Assembly (NCBI GenBank): GCA_041494685.1
Contig: JBGQBE010000005.1
Coordinates: 1-64,000, forward strand
DNA length: 64,000 bases
Direction: 5' to 3'
From: Dehalococcoidia bacterium
GTDB taxonomy: Bacteria; Chloroflexota; Dehalococcoidia; DSTF01; JACRBR01
Shown piece after piece: positions 39,520-47,522 of this stretch; position 1 is the stretch's first letter, and every line of letters starts with the position of its first letter. The notes under the pieces are model-generated. The model did not search any database. It was not told the origin of the DNA and saw only the letters and a list, made by a program, of their open reading frames with translations. The translations under genes and the position numbers were made by a program.

Positions 39520-41364
39520 ATGATCGGCGGCGGCATGGGCGGCATGGGTATGGGCATGGGCGGTGGCGGCGCCGGTGCCGCGGTGCTGCGCGAGCGGGCG
39601 AAGCCGCGCCGCAGCGCCCGCGAACTCCTGGGGCGGATCGCCGTCCTGTTCCGCCCGTATGGCTGGTCGATCGCGCTGCTGATCGTCACGGTGACCGCCG
39701 CCGCGCTGGTCGGGCTGGCGCCGCCGCTCCTGTTCGCCCGCATCATCGATAACGTCAACGGCAAGAAGGACGTGCGCGCCGTCGATATCGACGCGGCGCT
39801 GATCTTCGCCGCCGTGCTGGGCGGCGCGCTGCTGAGCGTGCTCCAGTCCTTCCTCAACAACCGCGTCGGCCAGGGCGTGATGTACGACCTGCGCAACGCC
39901 ACCTACCGCCACCTGCAGAAGATGTCGCTTCGCTTCTTCACCTCCACCCGCAGCGGCGAGATGCTCTCTCGCCTCAACAACGACGTCAGCGGCATCCAGG
40001 ACGCCGTCACCAACAGCTTCACCACTCTCTACTCGAACCTGATCACCGTCATCACGACCGTCGTGCTCATGGCGGCGCTCGACTGGCGGCTCACACTACT
40101 GTCGCTGTCCGCGCTGCCGGTCTTCCTCATCCCGACCCGCATGGTCGGCTCGATCCAGCGGCGATTGCTGGCGCAGACACAGCAGCGCCTGGGCGACATG
40201 AACGCGCAGATGCAAGAGACGCTCTCGGTGAACGGCGCGATGCTGACGAAGATCTTCGGCCGCCAGGCGTACGAGTACGGGCGCTTCGACGCCACCAACC
40301 GCGACGTGCGCGATCTGACGTTCCGGCGGTTGATGACGGGGCGCTGGTTCTTCATGCTGCTCGGCCTCTTCGGCGGCGTCGCGCCTGCGCTCGTCTACTG
40401 GTACGGCGGGCGGCAGGTCGTCTCAGGCGGGCTGAAGGTCGGCGAGGTCGTGGCGTTCGCCGCGCTCGTCACGCGCATCTTCTCGCCCGTCACGCAACTG
40501 CTCTCCGTCTGGATCACGTTGCAGAGCTCCCTCGCCCTGTTCGAGCGGGTCTTCGAGTACGGCGAGCTGCCGGTAGAGATCGATGAGAAGCCCGGCGCCA
40601 CTGACATCCCGCGCGTCGAGGGCCGCGTCCGCTACGATCACGTCGGCTTCCGCTACGGCAAGACGGCGCAGGCGGTCGAGGACGTGTCGCTGGAGATCTT
40701 GCCGGGCCAGGTGGCGGCGCTTGTCGGGCCGTCCGGCGCCGGAAAGACGACGCTCACCTACTTGCTGCCGCGCCTCTACGACGCCACCGAAGGCCGCGTG
40801 ATGATCGACGGCCACGACGTGCGCGACCTGACGTTCGACACGCTCAACCGCGCCATCGGCGTCGTGACGCAGGAGCCGTACCTCTTTCACGCGACGATCA
40901 AGGAGAACATCCAGTACGCGCGGCCGGACGCCACCGACGAGCAGATCCAGGCGGCCGCGCGCGCGGCGTACATCGACGAATTTGTGACGGGGCTGCCGCA
41001 CGGCTACGACACGATCGTTGGAGAGCGCGGCTACCGCCTCTCGGGCGGCGAGAAGCAGCGCGTGGCGATCGCCCGCGCCGTCCTGAAAGACCCGCCGATC
41101 CTGATCCTCGACGAGGCGACGTCGTCACTCGACTCCCACTCCGAGCGGATCATCCAGCGCGCGCTCGACGAGCTGTCACGCGGCCGCACGACACTGGTGA
41201 TCGCGCACCGCCTGAGCACGGTGTTGCACGCCGACACGATCGTCGTGCTGGACCGCGGGCGGGTGGTGGAGCGCGGCACGCACACGGAGCTCATCGCGCA
41301 CGAGGGGCTCTATGCCTCGCTGTACACGCAGCAGTTCGCCGCGGTGCCGGCAGCCGGCGGGTAG
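39520..41364 (+). CDS. ABC exporter, fused permease/ATP-binding (MsbA-like)
   Basis: TM domain plus GPSGAGKT, LSGGEKQR, ILDEAT, IAHRL. Confidence 0.94.
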   Translation: MIGGGMGGMGMGMGGGGAGAAVLRERAKPRRSARELLGRIAVLFRPYGWSIALLIVTVTAAALVGLAPPLLFARIIDNVNGKKDVRAVDIDAALIFAAVLGGALLSVLQSFLNNRVGQGVMYDLRNATYRHLQKMSLRFFTSTRSGEMLSRLNNDVSGIQDAVTNSFTTLYSNLITVITTVVLMAALDWRLTLLSLSALPVFLIPTRMVGSIQRRLLAQTQQRLGDMNAQMQETLSVNGAMLTKIFGRQAYEYGRFDATNRDVRDLTFRRLMTGRWFFMLLGLFGGVAPALVYWYGGRQVVSGGLKVGEVVAFAALVTRIFSPVTQLLSVWITLQSSLALFERVFEYGELPVEIDEKPGATDIPRVEGRVRYDHVGFRYGKTAQAVEDVSLEILPGQVAALVGPSGAGKTTLTYLLPRLYDATEGRVMIDGHDVRDLTFDTLNRAIGVVTQEPYLFHATIKENIQYARPDATDEQIQAAARAAYIDEFVTGLPHGYDTIVGERGYRLSGGEKQRVAIARAVLKDPPILILDEATSSLDSHSERIIQRALDELSRGRTTLVIAHRLSTVLHADTIVVLDRGRVVERGTHTELIAHEGLYASLYTQQFAAVPAAGG

Positions 41365-41604: not shown

Positions 41605-42195
41605 CTACGCCGCCAACCGCCGTATCTTGCTCGCCGTCTTCACCACCTCGCGCCTGCGCGCCTCGTCGCGCTGCCTCATGGCGTAGTCGACACGGTAGAC
41701 CAGCAGCACCAGCAGGATCAGGGACGTTGAGAAGTACATCGCGCCGGCCCAGAGCTGGCTCGTGTCGGTGCCGGCGGCGATGCCGTGCGCCGTCGCGCCC
41801 GCGTACAGCACGAACGAGAGGACGTGGATCATCCGCCAAGCGCGGAAGCCCATGTGCTGACGCATCCAGAAGCTCGCGACCACCAGCACCAGCGCGTACG
41901 TCGAAAGCACACCGATCGCCACGGCGACGCCACGGTACGGCGAGAGAAACGGAAGCGAGAGCTGCCAGACGTTGAAGTTCAGGTACTGGTCTCCCAGCAG
42001 CACATAGGTGTGGAAGCCGGTCGCCAGCAGCGCCAGCACCGACACGAAGCGGTGCATGTCGAAGACCAGGTTCTGCCGCCGGCCGCCCGTGCCGACACGG
42101 GCCGTGATCATCATGCCCAGCGCCATGGAAGCGAAGAGGAGCAGGTAAGCGGTGAAGCCGGCTGCGCGAGACAGGTACCAGAACTCGTGATTCAT
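41605..42195 (-). CDS. Ferric reductase-like (MsrQ-like) heme b membrane protein
   Basis: WYLSRAAG; four TM His (MHR, FHT, IHV, AHG); GTD. Confidence 0.85.
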   Translation of the reverse strand: MNHEFWYLSRAAGFTAYLLLFASMALGMMITARVGTGGRRQNLVFDMHRFVSVLALLATGFHTYVLLGDQYLNFNVWQLSLPFLSPYRGVAVAIGVLSTYALVLVVASFWMRQHMGFRAWRMIHVLSFVLYAGATAHGIAAGTDTSQLWAGAMYFSTSLILLVLLVYRVDYAMRQRDEARRREVVKTASKIRRLAA

Positions 42196-42238: not shown

Positions 42239-42484
42239 TTATGAGACGTGGGTGCGCGTGGTGGTGCGGGTAGTCGCCTGGACGCTCTTCGTCTGCGCCG
42301 CCGCCTTCGTCGGCGTCGCGTACGGCTGCGATGCGCCGGCCGACGGCGCTGTCTGCGCCAGTACGTCCGCGGATGCCGTAGCAGCCGCACCGCGCTGCAC
42401 CAGTCCGAGCGCTACCGCCATGGTGGCGATGCTGGCGATGAGCGCCGTGATCTTGGCCCCGGTGTTCTTCTTCATCTGCAACAT
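42239..42484 (-). CDS. Small exported Ala/Thr-rich protein
   Basis: Signal/TM segment, low-complexity linker, TTRTTTRTHVS C-terminus; GGAGG SD. Confidence 0.65.
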   Translation of the reverse strand: MLQMKKNTGAKITALIASIATMAVALGLVQRGAAATASADVLAQTAPSAGASQPYATPTKAAAQTKSVQATTRTTTRTHVS

Positions 42485-42610: not shown

Positions 42611-43421
42611 CTACTTCGCGCCGTACGCCTTCAGGCGTTCCAGCGCGGTCCACGTCGCGGCGTCCAGCGGGATCCAGTCGTTGAACGACAGGCCGTCGGG
42701 CTCGCTCGCCGGGTTCACCATGCCGCGAAACCGCAACGGTCCGACATCGGGGTCCTCCCACACCACCGGATATTCCCAACGGATCTTCGGCGTTCTCGGT
42801 ATGGCGGTCTGCCACGCGTGCAGGAAGGGTTGGATGACGTTCGGATCTCCGGCGAAGAAGCGCTCCATGATCGCGGCAAAGTACGGGCTGGGGTCCTCCA
42901 TGGATTCGGCGCCGCGATGGTGGCCCTTGAACGTGGCCGCCATCACCGCCAGCACCTCCGGCAGATTGGTGCAGCGCGCCGCGAAACGGGGGTTGCTGGC
43001 CACGCCCAGAAGGTTGCGCTCGATGGGATCGAGGAACTCGGTATTCAGGTCGACGGACCACAACCGCTGCGCGGCGGCGTTGGCTGCGGAGACTTCCATC
43101 ATCTCGTTGAGGACGAACGCCGGCCACGGATAGTCCTCGATGAACCTGGCCGCCTCCTCGGGCGTGAACATGAACCGGCTGGCCGGCCACGGACTGAGTT
43201 CGTACGCATCAGACGCGTAGCCCGCCGCGGCGAGGATCGTGTTGCGCTCGGAACGATCCAGCTTCAGTGCGTCGAGGATCGCGAAAAGGTGCTCGCGCGA
43301 CGGACTGCGGCGCGCGTTCTCGTAGCTCCGCACCGCTTCGACCGAGAGCCGCGACAGCTCAGCGAGACGGCCCTGGCTCAACTTGCGCCGCTGGCGCGCT
43401 CGACCGCCAGTCAGTTCCCAT
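42611..43421 (-). CDS. XRE HTH regulator with MmyB-like ligand-binding domain; possible 5' frameshift
   Basis: RARQRRKLSQ..LAE...SYE..RRSP HTH; WPAFVLN...AAN..A; the likely ATG (43421) is out of frame with the body, whose first in-frame start is TTG 43381. Confidence 0.75.
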
Positions 43422-43488: not shown

Positions 43489-44880
43489 CTACGCCGCGCG
43501 GCGCAACCGCTCTTGCTGGCGCGCGAGGAGCGCATCCACCACGCGCGGATCGAACTGTGTGCCGGCGTGCCGCGCGATCTCGTCGTACGCTTCGGCGCTC
43601 GTCCGCGCCGCCTTGTACGGTCGCGCCGCCATAATCGCGTCGTAGGCATCCGCCACGGCAAAGATCCGGGCGGCCAGCGGGATCTGCTCGCCGCGAAGGC
43701 CGCGTGGATAGCCGCTGCCGTCGAAGTGCTCGTGGTGGCAGAGCACCAGCTCGGCCGCGGTGGCCAGGAAGCGCACGCCGGCGAGCATGCGATATCCCTG
43801 CATGGAGTGGGATCGGATGATCTCCCACTCCTCCGCGTCGAGCGGTCCCGGCTTGCGCAGCACGGCGTCCGGCACGCCGATCTTGCCGATGTCGTGCAGC
43901 ATCGCGCCGTGCTTCAGGTCGAGCCATTCGCGCGTGTCGGGCTTGACGCCCAGCGTCAGGCCGAGTTCCAGCGAAAGCTCCGCCACGCGCGTGGAGTGTC
44001 CGTGCGTCTCGATGTCGCGCGTGTCGAGCGCGGAGACAAATGCCGCGAGTGTCTCGTTGTACGCGTCCGCCAGTTCGTGGCTGAGCGTCTCTACCTCGGT
44101 GTTCTTCTCGCGCAGCTCCCGCACGGTGTGCTCCGTACGATCCACGTACTGCTTCATGGTGAACCGCGTCATGACCACGGGGAGCGTCAGGCCGAGCACA
44201 CCGTATGCCGCAAGTTCGTCGTACGCCATGACCAGCATGAACGCCAGGAAGCCCATCACGACGAAATGCGGCACGAGCCACGCGAACGTCTCGCTCCACA
44301 CGCGCCGCAGCGACGCGCCGCTCGTGCACCCGATGATCGACGCCACCAGCGCGCTGCTGACAGCGAAGTGCGCCAGAGACGCGGTAATGATGGCGGCAGC
44401 CTGCACCGGCCGCCCGCCGTACGGCGTCGCGTGGGCCATCAGGCGATAGGCGCCGAAGGCAGCAAGCGCGGCGAGTACAAACACGCTCGCGTTGAAGATC
44501 AGCTTGTACAGCGGCCGGCCGCGCCCCACATGAGCGGCCAGCGCCACCGCCGGGCACACCAGCAGCACCGCCACGGGGCCGAACAGCACAGCGGCCGTCA
44601 CCATGAACAGGACGCTTACCGACACGCGGCCGTCGCCGTAGACGTGGATGTCCAGCCGCTCGGACGCCATACCCAGCGCCGCGATCAGCGCCAGTGTCAG
44701 CCAGGCGCTCCCTGGCAGGCTGAGTTCGGTGTAGGCAAGGGCGATGGCGCCCGCCAGGACGCCGGCGCACGCGGCCACGGCGATCAGGAGCCGCGCCCCG
44801 GCGGGCAGGCGCTCATCCGGCGGCGCGGGACCCGCGACGGACGGCGGCGCCACCCGCAGGCGCGCGTCTGACTTCTCCAA
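43489..44880 (-). CDS. HD-GYP phosphodiesterase with N-terminal multi-TM sensor domain
   Basis: T.GHS.RV, LHDIGKIG, HHEHFDGSGYPRGL, VADAYDA; ~7 TM plus coiled-coil linker; TTG start with AGAGGAG SD. Confidence 0.93.
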   Translation of the reverse strand: MEKSDARLRVAPPSVAGPAPPDERLPAGARLLIAVAACAGVLAGAIALAYTELSLPGSAWLTLALIAALGMASERLDIHVYGDGRVSVSVLFMVTAAVLFGPVAVLLVCPAVALAAHVGRGRPLYKLIFNASVFVLAALAAFGAYRLMAHATPYGGRPVQAAAIITASLAHFAVSSALVASIIGCTSGASLRRVWSETFAWLVPHFVVMGFLAFMLVMAYDELAAYGVLGLTLPVVMTRFTMKQYVDRTEHTVRELREKNTEVETLSHELADAYNETLAAFVSALDTRDIETHGHSTRVAELSLELGLTLGVKPDTREWLDLKHGAMLHDIGKIGVPDAVLRKPGPLDAEEWEIIRSHSMQGYRMLAGVRFLATAAELVLCHHEHFDGSGYPRGLRGEQIPLAARIFAVADAYDAIMAARPYKAARTSAEAYDEIARHAGTQFDPRVVDALLARQQERLRRAA

Positions 44881-45034
44881 TCCGCTACTCCTCTGCGAGA
44901 TTGTCGTCGCGTGCGGGACGAATATGCAGGCGATTTCCCCGAAATATCCCGCTCCGGGCCATCAGATGCTCGAAACGCCGCCGATTGATGTGAGTGGCGG
45001 ACGCGACTGAAGCGTCCCCGACAACCGAATACAC

Positions 45035-45123
45035 CTCCGATAAAGGCAAACCCGTCGAAAGGCGGGGGCGCAAAGCCACGGGCCTACACCCCATACGGGG
45101 CACGGCAGCCGGGCTGCCGGTTT
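45035..45123 (+). ncRNA. c-di-GMP-I (GEMM) riboswitch
   Basis: AAAGGCAAACCCGTC-GAAA-GGCGGGGGCGCAAAGCCACGGGCCTA...GGCAGCCGGGCTGCCG matches the GEMM-I core; G at the position-20 equivalent. Confidence 0.92.
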
Positions 45124-45134
45124 CATTCGGAGCC

Positions 45135-45179
45135 AACCCCCGCTATCCCACGGGCTGAGGTAGCGGGTTCTCTTTCTTT
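45135..45179 (+). terminator. Intrinsic terminator (riboswitch expression platform)
   Basis: cccgctat...gtagcggg stem followed by ttctctttcttt, just before the GGAGG SD. Confidence 0.7.
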
Positions 45180-45192
45180 GGCGGAGGTGCGT

Positions 45193-46689
45193 ATGTTCCA
45201 GTCCAGACCCTGGTTCCATGTCCCTATCCTGGGAGGGCTGCTCCTGCTGGTAGCCCTCATCTCGGCGGGCATCACGCCTGCCACCCGCACGTCGCACGCG
45301 CAGGGCGCCGTCTGGGCGTACGGCGACGCCCATCCCGGCCAGCCCATCCCGGTGATCGTCCAGACGGACGGCGGTGCGGATGCGGCACAGTTGGTCCGCG
45401 CGAGCGGCGCGGCCGTCCGCGTGGACCTCGGGTTCATGCACGCGGCCGCGGCCGACATCCCGGCCGACCGGCTGCACGAACTCGCTGCCGCGGACCACGT
45501 CGCTAACATCAGCCTCGACGGCACGGTGTCGTCCGCCGACGACGGCAAGAACAGCCCGATCGGCACCGACGGCGCGCCGACCAGCGTGTATCCCCGCGAG
45601 ATCAAAGCCGGCGATCTCTGGAACGACGGCTTCTCCGGGCAAGGCGTCGGCGTCGCGATCGTCGACACGGGCATCGTGCCCAGCAAGGACTTTGGCTCCC
45701 GCGTCATCGCCACCTTCGCGACGCAGGCCGGGACGTCGCCGGACGGCTACGGCCACGGCTCACACGTCGCCGGTCTCGCGGGCGGCAACGGCGCGAACTC
45801 CGCCAACCAGTACCGAGGCGTGGCGCCGAAGGTCAACCTGATCAACGTCAAAACGGGCGATGACCAGGGCCTGGCGCATGTCAGCGACATCATCGCGGGC
45901 CTGGCTTGGGTGCTCGACAACAAGGACGCGTACAACATCCGCGTCGTCAACCTGTCGCTGCGCTCCGACACGGCACAGAGCTACACGACCGATCCGCTGG
46001 ACGCCGCGGTCGAGCTGCTGACGTTCCGCGGCATCCTCGTCGTCGTCGCGGCCGGCAACACCGGCACCGTCGCCGACGCCGTATCCTACGCGCCGGCCAA
46101 CGACCCGTTCGTCCTCACCGTAGGCGCGGTGGACGACCTCGGCACATCGGACTACAAGGATGACCTCGTCGCGCCCTGGTCCAGCCGTGGCGCAACGCAG
46201 GACGGCTTCGCCAAGCCGGACGTGTACGTGCCCGGCCGCCACCTCATCTCGGTGCAGAGTCCGGGCAGCGTACTCACGGCGCTGTTCCCCAACAACCTCG
46301 TCGGCTCGTACTACTTCACCCTCAGTGGCACGTCGATGGCCGCGGGCGTGGCGAGCGGCGGCGCCGCGCTGCTGTTCCAGGCGCATCCCGACTGGACGCC
46401 GGGCCAGGCGAAGCTCGCGCTGATGCAAGGCTCCAGGGCGGTGTCCGCCGACGCTACGGTCAACGTGGCCCAGCTGGACCGCTCGGTCGAACTGTCGCCC
46501 GTCGACACGACGACCAGCATCAAGCCAAACTACCTGCTGCTGCAGGCCGCCGGCATCGCTGACCCGCAGAGCATCAGCTGGGGCAGCGTCTCGTGGGGCT
46601 CCATCTCGTGGGGCAGCATCAGCTGGGGCAGCATCTCGTGGGGCTCGGTGTCCTGGGGCAGCGTGTCCTGGGGCGAGGCGGGGGAGTAA
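45193..46689 (+). CDS. Secreted S8 (subtilisin-like) peptidase with C-terminal SxSWG repeats
   Basis: Signal peptide, short prodomain, triad IVDTG / HGSHVAG / SGTSMA, oxyanion AAGN; 7x S[IV]SWG tail. Confidence 0.93.
   Translation: MFQSRPWFHVPILGGLLLLVALISAGITPATRTSHAQGAVWAYGDAHPGQPIPVIVQTDGGADAAQLVRASGAAVRVDLGFMHAAAADIPADRLHELAAADHVANISLDGTVSSADDGKNSPIGTDGAPTSVYPREIKAGDLWNDGFSGQGVGVAIVDTGIVPSKDFGSRVIATFATQAGTSPDGYGHGSHVAGLAGGNGANSANQYRGVAPKVNLINVKTGDDQGLAHVSDIIAGLAWVLDNKDAYNIRVVNLSLRSDTAQSYTTDPLDAAVELLTFRGILVVVAAGNTGTVADAVSYAPANDPFVLTVGAVDDLGTSDYKDDLVAPWSSRGATQDGFAKPDVYVPGRHLISVQSPGSVLTALFPNNLVGSYYFTLSGTSMAAGVASGGAALLFQAHPDWTPGQAKLALMQGSRAVSADATVNVAQLDRSVELSPVDTTTSIKPNYLLLQAAGIADPQSISWGSVSWGSISWGSISWGSISWGSVSWGSVSWGEAGE
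46570..46674 (+). repeat. Seven 15-bp coding repeats (SISWG x4, SVSWG x3)
   Basis: AGCATCAGCTGGGGC-type units; Ser codons alternate AGC/TCG/TCC. Confidence 0.95.
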
Positions 46690-46691
46690 CG

Positions 46692-47522
46692 ATGGCAATC
46701 GCGAATACCCGATCGCCCATGCACTCCTCGGTCTTTGAACTCCCGACGGGGCGCGCGCTCATCGCCTTCGTCGTGAGCGTCACCGCCGCGGGCGCCGCTG
46801 CCATCACCCTCGCCGGCTTCTTTGGCAGCGGCTCCGGCAACCTCACGCTCATCGCCGGCCTCGTGATCGCCGGCGCGGTCTCAGAGCGCTTCAAGGTCGG
46901 CCTCTTCGGCGACGCGCACGTATCGCTCGCCGCGGTCGCGATGATGGCGGCCGGTCTCATCGGCGGCGCGCGCGACGTCGTCATCGTCGCGCCACTGATC
47001 GCCATCGCCGTGAACGTTGGCGGCGTGGTGCCGTTCTACAAGACGGCCTTCAACGTCGCGGCGTACACCCTGGCGTCGCTGGCGTTCCTGGGCACCGTTC
47101 GGCTCGCCGGCGCGACGCCGCTCACCGCAGCGTGGCCGCAGAGCGTAGTCGCTGCCACGGTCGGCACCGCCGTCTACTTCGCGCTGAACACGGCGTTGAT
47201 CGCCACGGCCGTCAGCATTGCCTCGGGCAACCGGTTCGCGGACGTGATCCGCGGACGCTACCTGTGGCTGCTGCCGCACTACCTGCCGCTGGGCGCGCTC
47301 GCCGCCTCCCTGGCGCACGCCTACGACCCGACGGGCGCGTGGTCCATCGCCATCTTCGCCGCTCCGGTGGCCGCCGTGCAGTTCGCGCTGTACCAGTACG
47401 CCAGCCTCCGGCGGACGAACGCCGCGAGCCTGCGCGAGATCGAGGAACGGATGCGCCTCGTCGAAGCCGAGCTGACGCTCGCGCGGACCCTGGACGGCGC
47501 GCCGGACCGCAACGTCGCGTAA
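46692..47522 (+). CDS. Stand-alone multi-TM protein paralogous to the HD-GYP sensor domain
   Basis: Shares SER....GD..VS, P.YK..FN, WL.PH, AYD, P....F...QY with 43489..44880; ends after a coiled coil; starts 2 nt after the S8 stop. Confidence 0.85.
   Translation: MAIANTRSPMHSSVFELPTGRALIAFVVSVTAAGAAAITLAGFFGSGSGNLTLIAGLVIAGAVSERFKVGLFGDAHVSLAAVAMMAAGLIGGARDVVIVAPLIAIAVNVGGVVPFYKTAFNVAAYTLASLAFLGTVRLAGATPLTAAWPQSVVAATVGTAVYFALNTALIATAVSIASGNRFADVIRGRYLWLLPHYLPLGALAASLAHAYDPTGAWSIAIFAAPVAAVQFALYQYASLRRTNAASLREIEERMRLVEAELTLARTLDGAPDRNVA

Follow-up and report, generated by a model that had tools for sequence, protein, structure and literature searches.

A repeat-tailed subtilase gene paired with MASE9 membrane-protein genes at a cyclic di-GMP riboswitch locus of an uncultured Chloroflexota bacterium

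The window analysed here is a stretch of 64,000 nucleotides from contig C5 of a 3.29-Mb, 97.6% complete metagenome-assembled genome (MAG) of the class Dehalococcoidia, labelled G000. Between positions 43489 and 47522 it carries a cyclic diguanylate (c-di-GMP) riboswitch, a gene for an exported S8-family subtilase that ends in a tryptophan (Trp) repeat, and two genes for membrane proteins that share a divergent MASE9 domain, one of them fused to an HD-GYP phosphodiesterase domain. The host is an uncultured Chloroflexota bacterium from sediment, and the DNA of the locus is present in the contig sets of four sediment metagenomes and in no listed RNA run. Across the phylum, in different families and classes, the pairing of a tailed S8 protease with MASE9 is conserved. 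Our preferred reading, to which we give about an even chance, is that the locus encodes a MASE9 module for signal input, coupled to a protease and embedded in a c-di-GMP feedback loop. The loop itself can reasonably be inferred from an aptamer placed before the operon and a phosphodiesterase gene beside it.

The core of the locus is a two-gene operon on the forward strand. A c-di-GMP-I (GEMM-I) aptamer (45036–45122) precedes the S8 gene (45193–46689), which encodes a protein of 498 amino acids, and the stretch 46570–46674 of this gene specifies the C-terminal tail of seven pentapeptides. The gene for a stand-alone MASE9 membrane protein follows (46692–47522; 276 amino acids); this protein has no output domain and ends in a helix predicted to be cytoplasmic. 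The MASE9-HD-GYP gene (43489–44880, reverse strand; 463 amino acids) is divergent from the operon and is not itself behind the riboswitch. A preliminary description of this DNA had treated the genes and the riboswitch as one unit, and this is borne out by other genomes: the full divergent layout, with MASE9-HD-GYP on one side of the riboswitch and the tailed S8 and stand-alone MASE9 genes on the other, is also found in G002, G013 and G005, which belong to three other genera.

The linkage between protease and MASE9 was assessed with DNA searches that used the tail only, so that the loci were not ascertained through MASE9. The pattern (ATH NNN TGG NNN NNN)x4 matched 10 of 401 genomes of the class, against 1 of 401 for a reversed-pattern control, and the tail pattern W-[GNDS]-x-[IVM]-x matched 7 of 201 genomes of the phylum, with no match for the control. 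All tail-pattern matches are C-terminal tails of S8 proteins. The loci found in this way span eight families and more than one class, and at 16 of the 18 (from 16 Chloroflexota genomes) the next gene downstream on the same strand is a MASE9 gene. Of the remaining two loci, that of G294 is without MASE9 and that of G462 lies on a contig that ends 682 nucleotides past the S8 gene. The MASE9 neighbours are MASE9-HD-GYP, MASE9-HD-GYP-PAS-GGDEF or stand-alone proteins, or a MASE9-GGDEF protein that comes after a stand-alone MASE9. Three more loci, reached through MASE9 or the riboswitch (G013, G038 and G019), agree with this picture. A pattern of six TGG codons at 15-nucleotide spacing was also tried across the phylum; it matched 82 of 301 genomes (the unpublished G640 included) together with many control matches, and was dropped as non-specific.

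Several of these loci appear to be eroded or mis-assembled. In G047 the full MASE9 gene, of the MASE9-HD-GYP type, is 1.7 kb from the S8 gene, which encodes an NITWD tail. The fragment between them (L057, G047:C180, 6383–6817) encodes 145 amino acids with weak similarity to MASE9 and HD-GYP and looks like the remnant of a second MASE9 gene. G038, from another family, has a decayed or mis-assembled copy of the locus with GIRWR units. The tailed S8 genes of G038 (L020, G038:C133, 1400–3112) and G019 (L127, G019:C11, 1603–3735) are both split across reading frames, that of G038 also having an in-frame stop, and the MASE9 gene downstream is intact in each case; these are either decaying genes or assembly errors.

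Within the source genome, the linkage takes in the riboswitches as well. G000 contains exactly four c-di-GMP-I aptamers and four MASE9 copies (tblastn), and no MASE9 copy lies outside the riboswitch loci: three of these four loci account for all of them. Contig C35 carries a riboswitch followed by an S8 gene (one TIDWS and six SIRWG units) and a stand-alone MASE9 gene, a type of locus also present in G002. Contig C52 (9035–11439; L025, 2036–4440, minus strand) carries a riboswitch followed by genes for a FliA/WhiG-like sigma factor, which scores 182.5 bits against a cut-off of 189.6 for the corresponding model, and for a MASE9-HD-GYP protein. For the aptamer on contig C36 (12528–12616; L026, 3529–3616, minus strand; 74.3 bits) we found no convincing open reading frame (ORF) within about 650 nucleotides downstream, and its target may be a small unannotated gene, or it may work differently. 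The next clear gene after it encodes an SRPBCC-like protein.

Among 40 relatives, whose aptamer and gene places were compared by hand (the unpublished G021 included), 33 have an aptamer upstream of a MASE9(-HD-GYP) gene, at a distance of 1.0–1.9 kb. In this order MASE9 phosphodiesterases are thus, as a rule, under riboswitch control, and the tailed-S8 operons are further members of that regulon. The succession of aptamer, FliA/WhiG-like sigma factor and MASE9-HD-GYP is also seen at G013:C29 (L022, 3148–4946), and the same layout occurs in the 33 relatives; an operon of this kind probably serves c-di-GMP homeostasis in connection with a sigma factor for development or motility. At the tailed-S8 loci themselves the aptamer is less regular. 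It lies ahead of the S8 gene at 8 of the 20 tabulated loci, and at that of G019; at the other 12 it was not found at the gathering score, nor at E ≤ 0.05 in any of the five of them that were searched at this level. The preliminary description had proposed to look for enrichment, next to such proteases, of this membrane domain with diverse outputs and of riboswitches. The first part holds, with HD-GYP, GGDEF, both or no output among the MASE9 neighbours, but the second holds only for the minority of loci just given.

The S8 ORF opens at a TTG codon at 45178 and has its stop codon at 46687–46689. Translation likely starts at the ATG at 45193, five nucleotides after the GGAGG (45183–45187) of a Shine–Dalgarno (SD) stretch. 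The product matches Pfam Peptidase_S8 (PF00082) with E 1.7e-43, and the catalytic triad of D158, H188 and S381 is invariant, together with the oxyanion residue N289, across 56 aligned homologues. The protein is predicted to have an N-terminal hydrophobic helix (residues 9–25), a propeptide-like β-α-β element (about 52–114), the catalytic domain and a short helical linker before the tail. An AlphaFold2 model has a mean predicted local distance difference test (pLDDT) score of 84.1, with the propeptide-like and catalytic parts well folded and residues 468–498 below 50. The protein scores 107.4 bits with the model of type VII secretion mycosins (TIGR03921), under the curated cut-off of 278.75.

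Four SISWG and three SVSWG units make up the tail, after which only EAGE precedes the stop codon. Both the intact D/H/S triad of a secreted subtilase and the seven terminal S[IV]SWG units had been put forward in the preliminary description, and both are confirmed at the level of sequence. In the whole 3.29-Mb genome just two ORFs have Trp repeats with a period of five residues, each of them an S8 gene that follows a c-di-GMP-I riboswitch. All 71 homologues retrieved with the C-terminal 104 residues have period-5 Trp repeats, with units such as SISWG, SVSWG, SASWG, SVSWN, SVSWD and KISWS, and with SDYWG often last. In a set of 90 proteins with 671 units, the Trp is invariant, 84 of the 90 have Ile or Val at position 2, and the variable positions are 86–92% uniform within each protein. 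The number of units is 6–8 in 69 of these proteins and exactly 7 in 37, and the last unit ends no more than seven residues from the C-terminus in 75. No pentapeptide-repeat family of Pfam (PF00805 and relatives) matches the window S8 protein; PF01469 appears in the precomputed annotation of 3 of the 71 homologues. The tail is present without insertion or deletion in contigs of four sediment metagenome runs.

Successive units of the tail differ in their Ser codons, AGC or TCN, and third codon positions vary, so the identity of the units is kept at the protein level, with the tail under selection on its amino acids. Alternation of AGC and TCN at the first Ser gives the DNA a 30-nucleotide period under the five-residue period of the protein (window 46570–46674; also the tails in L017, L021 and L024), which may come from selection against slippage or from an ancestral two-unit repeat. 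On this evidence and the structure model, the tail is most likely a flexible, exposed element, either read unit by unit or ordered only on the surface of a partner or of the membrane.

These properties bear on two ways of reading the tail. In the first, put forward in the preliminary description, the protease would cut its own tail and release diffusible Trp-containing pentapeptides that MASE9 senses, as in quorum sensing, with precursor and protease in one polypeptide. Units that are near-identical within a protein in spite of synonymous codon divergence are as expected for a multi-copy signal, the predicted lack of structure would leave the tail accessible to a protease, and the S8 triad is intact. 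Where a genome has a paralogous pair, moreover, the two members differ in their units (SISWG and SIRWG, in both G000 and G002), and each has a MASE9 partner of its own. The tight distribution of unit number, on the other hand, suggests an element of defined length, and many tails mix their units (KISWS/KISWG/SISWS, AIKWD/AITWS) or end in the conserved cap SDYWG. Together with the arguments from MASE9 topology and distribution given below, this makes a released pentapeptide signal unlikely in our judgement.

In the second, the tail merely retains the protease at the membrane interface or envelope of a bacterium that has no outer membrane. The protease would then be an output of the c-di-GMP regulon, acting in matrix or surface remodelling, MASE9 would sense something else, and the genes would be neighbours through co-regulation. 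Ile or Val and Trp at fixed spacing among small polar residues would partition into the membrane interface on the Wimley–White scale, and control of a secreted protease and its substrates by c-di-GMP riboswitches is known in Clostridioides difficile. MASE9 is also abundant where there is no tailed S8, and other c-di-GMP-I riboswitches in this order drive the sigma factor and MASE9-HD-GYP genes, with no protease. Co-regulation alone would leave unexplained why MASE9 is the next gene at 16 of 18 loci, in several classes, with any output domain and with or without a riboswitch, and a generic anchor need not hold its variable positions uniform within each protein. We regard this retention-only reading as somewhat improbable, though a serious contender.

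The two membrane proteins of the window are related to each other. The stand-alone protein and the N-terminal domain of the HD-GYP protein share 34% identity over 233 residues (E 3e-30), in line with the paralogy proposed earlier. Pfam's MASE9 family (PF20972) matches neither full-length window protein at E ≤ 0.01, nor the stand-alone copy at E ≤ 1. It does match 8 of 15 aligned relatives at E ≤ 1 (best 4.6e-6), and it is present in the precomputed annotation of one homologue of 56% identity (P0082) and in 18–24% of the members of the nearest ESM-Atlas clusters of the stand-alone copy. A profile built from 30 MASE9 sequences matches the membrane part of the MASE9-HD-GYP protein with E 1.5e-85, this sequence being in the seed of the profile. 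The predicted architecture also corresponds to the description of MASE9, with eight helices, a short hairpin, polar residues within the membrane (E65, S78, K117 and N121) and fusions to HD-GYP and GGDEF. The membrane domain is best read as a divergent MASE9, past the reach of Pfam's own threshold. At E ≤ 1e-3 the 30-sequence profile finds 6247 representative clusters, and at E ≤ 1e-10 it finds 2142.

The AlphaFold2 model of the stand-alone protein, computed from 30 sequences, has a pLDDT of 86.4 and eight helices (residues 21–44, 51–66, 80–91, 93–108, 115–139, 150–178, 182–214 and 217–269). In a VIA-align search the 15 best hits to this model are all S components of energy-coupling factor (ECF) transporters, with Z scores from 14.9 to 9.2: NikM2 (4m5c) at 14.9, RibU (5kbw) at 13.8 and FolT (5d0y) at 13.5, down to BtuM at 9.2. 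They are followed by MreD (Z 8.0), and unrelated folds reach at most 6.9. The 15 top hits superpose on model residues of about 46–216 with root-mean-square deviations of 2.9–4.1 Å over 152–191 residues, and Foldseek agrees weakly (E 0.013, probability 1.0). A search of the MASE9 profile against the sequences of the Protein Data Bank (PDB) gave a best E of 1.8, with no sequence similarity to S components. The modelled MASE9 fold is thus S-component-like, a resemblance of fold only, and since S components bind small ligands it adds something to the case for MASE9 as a ligand-type domain in our own reading, and likewise for a small signal such as a pentapeptide.

The orientation of this fold complicates that case. 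MASE9 is probably oriented with both termini inside, inverted relative to S components, because the HD-GYP domain must be cytoplasmic and because the loop at about 179–190 is basic and the presumed outer loops are neutral or acidic. The outer loops are 2–10 residues long and poorly conserved, and the conserved residues E65, S78, K117, N121, W192 and Y197 lie on the predicted cytoplasmic side. An external tail would therefore find little obvious surface to bind, and an S-component-like pocket would face inwards; this tells against pentapeptides sensed from outside, and also against our own reading. No simple relation was found between the charge of the tail and that of the MASE9 outer loops. 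A complex prediction for the stand-alone MASE9 and S8 residues 436–498 returned a score of 0.00 and carries no weight either way, the partner's own fold being uncertain in it.

A third reading makes MASE9 the substrate or handler of the protease, with the stand-alone copy serving in docking, maturation or immunity, or with MASE9 cleaved by regulated proteolysis to switch the enzyme. The ATG codon of the stand-alone gene (46692) is two bases past the S8 stop and behind GGGGGAG, which indicates translational coupling to the S8 gene and thereby a matched stoichiometry of the two products. The S8-adjacent stand-alone copies moreover form one clade (support 96/92) with one HD-GYP-fused member inside it, and are therefore derived sensors that have lost their output. 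The small outer loops would offer an extracellular protease very little substrate, however, and the many signalling outputs found on MASE9 (GGDEF, HD-GYP and histidine kinase) befit an input domain. We consider a substrate or handler role quite improbable.

The protein encoded by the divergent gene begins with a polytopic part of about 260 residues, which includes the eight-helix membrane domain (about residues 30–250), continues through a linker helix and ends in the HD-GYP domain. This matches Pfam HD_5 with E 2.6e-40 over residues 284–447 and HD with E 1.5e-20, and the motifs LHDIGK and GSGYPRGL are intact in the translation, which confirms the membrane-bound HD-GYP protein of the preliminary description and predicts an intact c-di-GMP phosphodiesterase. 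MASE9 proteins tend to occur in twos. Most tailed-S8 loci have two MASE9 genes, and 69 of the best 150 MASE9 representatives are 701–1200 residues long. Among 16 representatives checked, from several length classes, 13 are fusions of the type MASE9-GGDEF-MASE9-HD-GYP or -kinase, or truncations of these, and most of the 13 show two MASE9 stretches by profile. In many representatives of 900–1100 residues (P0089, P0098, P0101, P0103, P0105 and others), the order is MASE9-GGDEF-MASE9-HD-GYP or MASE9-GGDEF-MASE9-histidine kinase, so that a single chain provides one MASE9 for the cyclase and another for the phosphodiesterase (or kinase). No fusion of S8 to MASE9 was found among the best 150 representatives.

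The riboswitch at the head of the operon, part of the preliminary description, is confirmed by a match to the canonical c-di-GMP-I model RF01051 of 87.6 bits against a gathering score of 35 (C5:45035–45121). The same bases match the c-di-GMP-I-GGC model RF03167 with 76.7 bits against a gathering score of 59, and score under the cut-off of RF03168. The RF03167 label given by cmscan reflects a choice by E-value within the clan, for which RF01051 was dropped. The consensus lines of the two matching models differ at one junction site, CGCAAAG in RF01051 and CGCGAAG in RF03167, which, as read from these lines, appears to be the site that names the variant. The window aptamer reads CGCAAAG there, as in the RF01051 consensus, and is therefore canonical at the site that separates it from the GGC variant; c-di-GMP binding is predicted. 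The G of the variant is absent from the window aptamer at this site, and CGCAAA also occurs in ten related aptamers. In the four sediment metagenomes the aptamer core (window 45037–45086) has a summed contig depth of 57–128x, compared with about 3–15x in the flanks, and near-identical c-di-GMP-I cores are carried by many other organisms there.

How the aptamer might act on the operon was approached by folding the leader. Between aptamer and SD, at 45137–45179, single-sequence folds place a hairpin of 9–14 base pairs followed by a pyrimidine- and U-rich tract in all four orthologous leaders, with arms of differing sequence. This goes some way towards the terminator of the preliminary description, but the hairpin is not among the calls of a simple terminator scan and was not recovered by RNAalifold on a MAFFT alignment of the four leaders, in which indels were misplaced and the U-rich tract paired with the SD instead. 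On the strength of the folds, the hairpin is terminator-like or SD-sequestering and could act as an attenuator. An antiterminator in which the 5' arm of the hairpin would pair with aptamer GGCGGGGG was considered and rejected; it fits G000 and G002 and fails in G013 and G005.

A second element is a candidate anti-SD, CACCUCCG (45032–45039), made up of the 5' strand of aptamer helix P1 and the four bases upstream. It is complementary to the SD stretch CGGAGGUG (45182–45189), and we infer its role solely from this complementarity and from folding. In unconstrained folds it pairs with the SD, leaving a probability of being unpaired of about 0, in six of eight S8-type leaders, namely the six of this family, and when the aptamer is enforced the accessibility of the SD in these six rises to 0.10–0.74. 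By prediction, the leaders of this family thus lean towards an ON switch in which the ribosome-binding site is set free. The stretch UCGGAG (45127–45132), read from the sequence as complementary to CUCCGA at the 5' end of the aptamer, is found in the leaders of G000 C5, G002 C11, G013, G005, G038 and G047 and is a possible P1 extension and SD mimic.

Our preferred reading can be set out as follows. Binding of c-di-GMP to the leader would set the output of the protease and the stand-alone MASE9. The protease would be exported, with its flexible Trp- and Ile-rich tail at the outer face of the membrane, attached or self-clipped, and protease or tail would there act on paired MASE9 proteins, the stand-alone copy probably pairing with the enzyme-linked one. 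MASE9, almost without extracytoplasmic loops, would need an accessory partner, like intramembrane-sensing kinases. The MASE9-HD-GYP protein would then shift its rate of c-di-GMP hydrolysis and so feed back on the riboswitch; an activated phosphodiesterase would make the feedback homeostatic, an inhibited one autoinducing. This makes the protease or its tail a concrete candidate for the input of MASE9. A further proposal, possible but held only tentatively, is that the tail units themselves, attached or clipped, are the ligand of a large MASE9 subfamily, and that subtilases carry a multi-copy peptide signal which paired MASE9 proteins read to set c-di-GMP or kinase output, the loop being closed by the riboswitch in this Chloroflexota lineage.

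Besides the probably inward-facing pocket, several observations weigh against a protease-coupled module. Adjacency of genes points to shared function or regulation, not to contact. MASE9 is far commoner than tailed S8, being present in 40 of 41 relatives and in 24 of 24 genomes of the family, with the tail pattern in 2 of 12 sampled genomes of the family besides G000; this also counts against a pentapeptide signal. G016 has a stand-alone MASE9 of the C35 type without an adjoining S8. Conversely, the tailed S8 of G294 (L063, G294:C6, 3895–6006), a different S8-like protein that is partly N-masked and has IPWQD units, or D-I-[PA]-W-Q repeats, has neither MASE9 nor HD-GYP nearby, and period-5 Trp tails thus extend beyond the MASE9-linked clade. 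With the riboswitch at only 8 of the 20 tailed-S8 loci, the closed loop is a lineage-specific addition, and the same count speaks against the pentapeptide circuit. Finally, the two leaders from other families among the eight folded behave in the opposite way in the folding test.

Other genes lie close to the locus, and a link to the module was not seen for any of them. An MmyB-like helix-turn-helix (HTH) regulator is encoded at 42611–43381 (reverse strand), a ferric-reductase-like membrane protein and, just upstream of it, a small exported protein at 41605–42195 and 42239–42484 (both reverse strand), and an ATP-binding cassette (ABC) exporter with a Gly/Met-rich N-terminus at 39520–41364 (forward strand).

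The locus holds the parts of an unusually complete regulatory loop, with a messenger-sensing RNA, the genes it controls, and a messenger-destroying enzyme placed under a paralogue of the co-expressed membrane domain. MASE9 is widespread, on HD-GYP, GGDEF and histidine-kinase outputs, and its signal is unknown; a conserved, linked partner makes its input experimentally approachable. With its S-component-like fold MASE9 has a conceivable way of holding a small ligand, and the side of the membrane from which it would read becomes a question in its own right. If the tail units do prove to be the ligand, they would define an undescribed class of cell-surface signalling, self-contained in this lineage. 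A literature search, with supplements outside its scope, found neither the tail motifs as a protein feature, among the matches listed, nor a link of subtilases with MASE9 or with c-di-GMP riboswitches in Chloroflexi. New here are the loop-closing riboswitch, the placement of all MASE9 copies of one genome in riboswitch loci, and the S-component-like fold with its probably inverted orientation.

MASE9 was defined by Galperin and Chou (bioRxiv 10.1101/2021.11.05.467447); in their account it is a membrane domain of eight segments that includes a short helical hairpin and intramembrane polar residues, its ligand unknown and binding within the membrane proposed, and HdgA of Streptomyces venezuelae is the only studied member. 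HdgA is encoded in an operon with a degenerate paralogue (hdgA, hdgB) and gave no phenotype (PMC6205966). The window proteins resemble the MASE9-HD-GYP phosphodiesterases of the Thermotoga maritima TM1467 and HdgA/HdgB types in their eight-helix domain with HD-GYP or GGDEF outputs, and the pairing of MASE9 genes recalls the adjacent active and degenerate genes hdgA and hdgB. They differ in falling under the Pfam threshold, in that one copy has no output, and, from what those accounts cover, in being tied to a tailed S8 and a c-di-GMP-I riboswitch. With ECF S components the MASE9 model shares the six-helix fold; unlike them, it has two additional helices, one ahead of the core and one C-terminal, a predicted inverted orientation and a sequence of its own.

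Other systems join a membrane sensor or receptor to a partner protein. LapD, a receptor for c-di-GMP, has a large periplasmic domain and signals from inside to outside, and LapG is not known to be a subtilase. The combination of a membrane protein of the c-di-GMP network with an extracytoplasmic protease is nonetheless shared between the window locus and LapD–LapG of Pseudomonas fluorescens (PMC3032545). The membrane partner in the window is instead an enzyme or a bare MASE9, almost without external loops. A similar case is that of accessory-dependent intramembrane-sensing kinases. The sensors BceS (with BceAB) and LiaS (with LiaF) have minimal extracytoplasmic loops and are encoded next to a protein that probably delivers the input, and the window MASE9 sensor, with its tiny outer loops, likewise adjoins a candidate partner gene. 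The partner here is an exported, repeat-tailed protease, and the outputs are mostly c-di-GMP enzymes.

Precursors of Bacillus Phr peptides and of yeast alpha-factor, which is cut by Kex2, are multi-copy or are cut by subtilisin-type proteases, and the window similarly combines tandem short units containing Trp or hydrophobic residues with an S8-family protease. Here, however, precursor and protease would be one polypeptide, and the number of units is conserved. In control of the protease, the nearest parallel is the C. difficile case mentioned above, where an aptamer likewise sits in the 5' leader, ahead of a gene for an exported protease; the window locus differs from it in also encoding a c-di-GMP-degrading enzyme with a sensor domain, so that signal, sensor and output would make up one loop.

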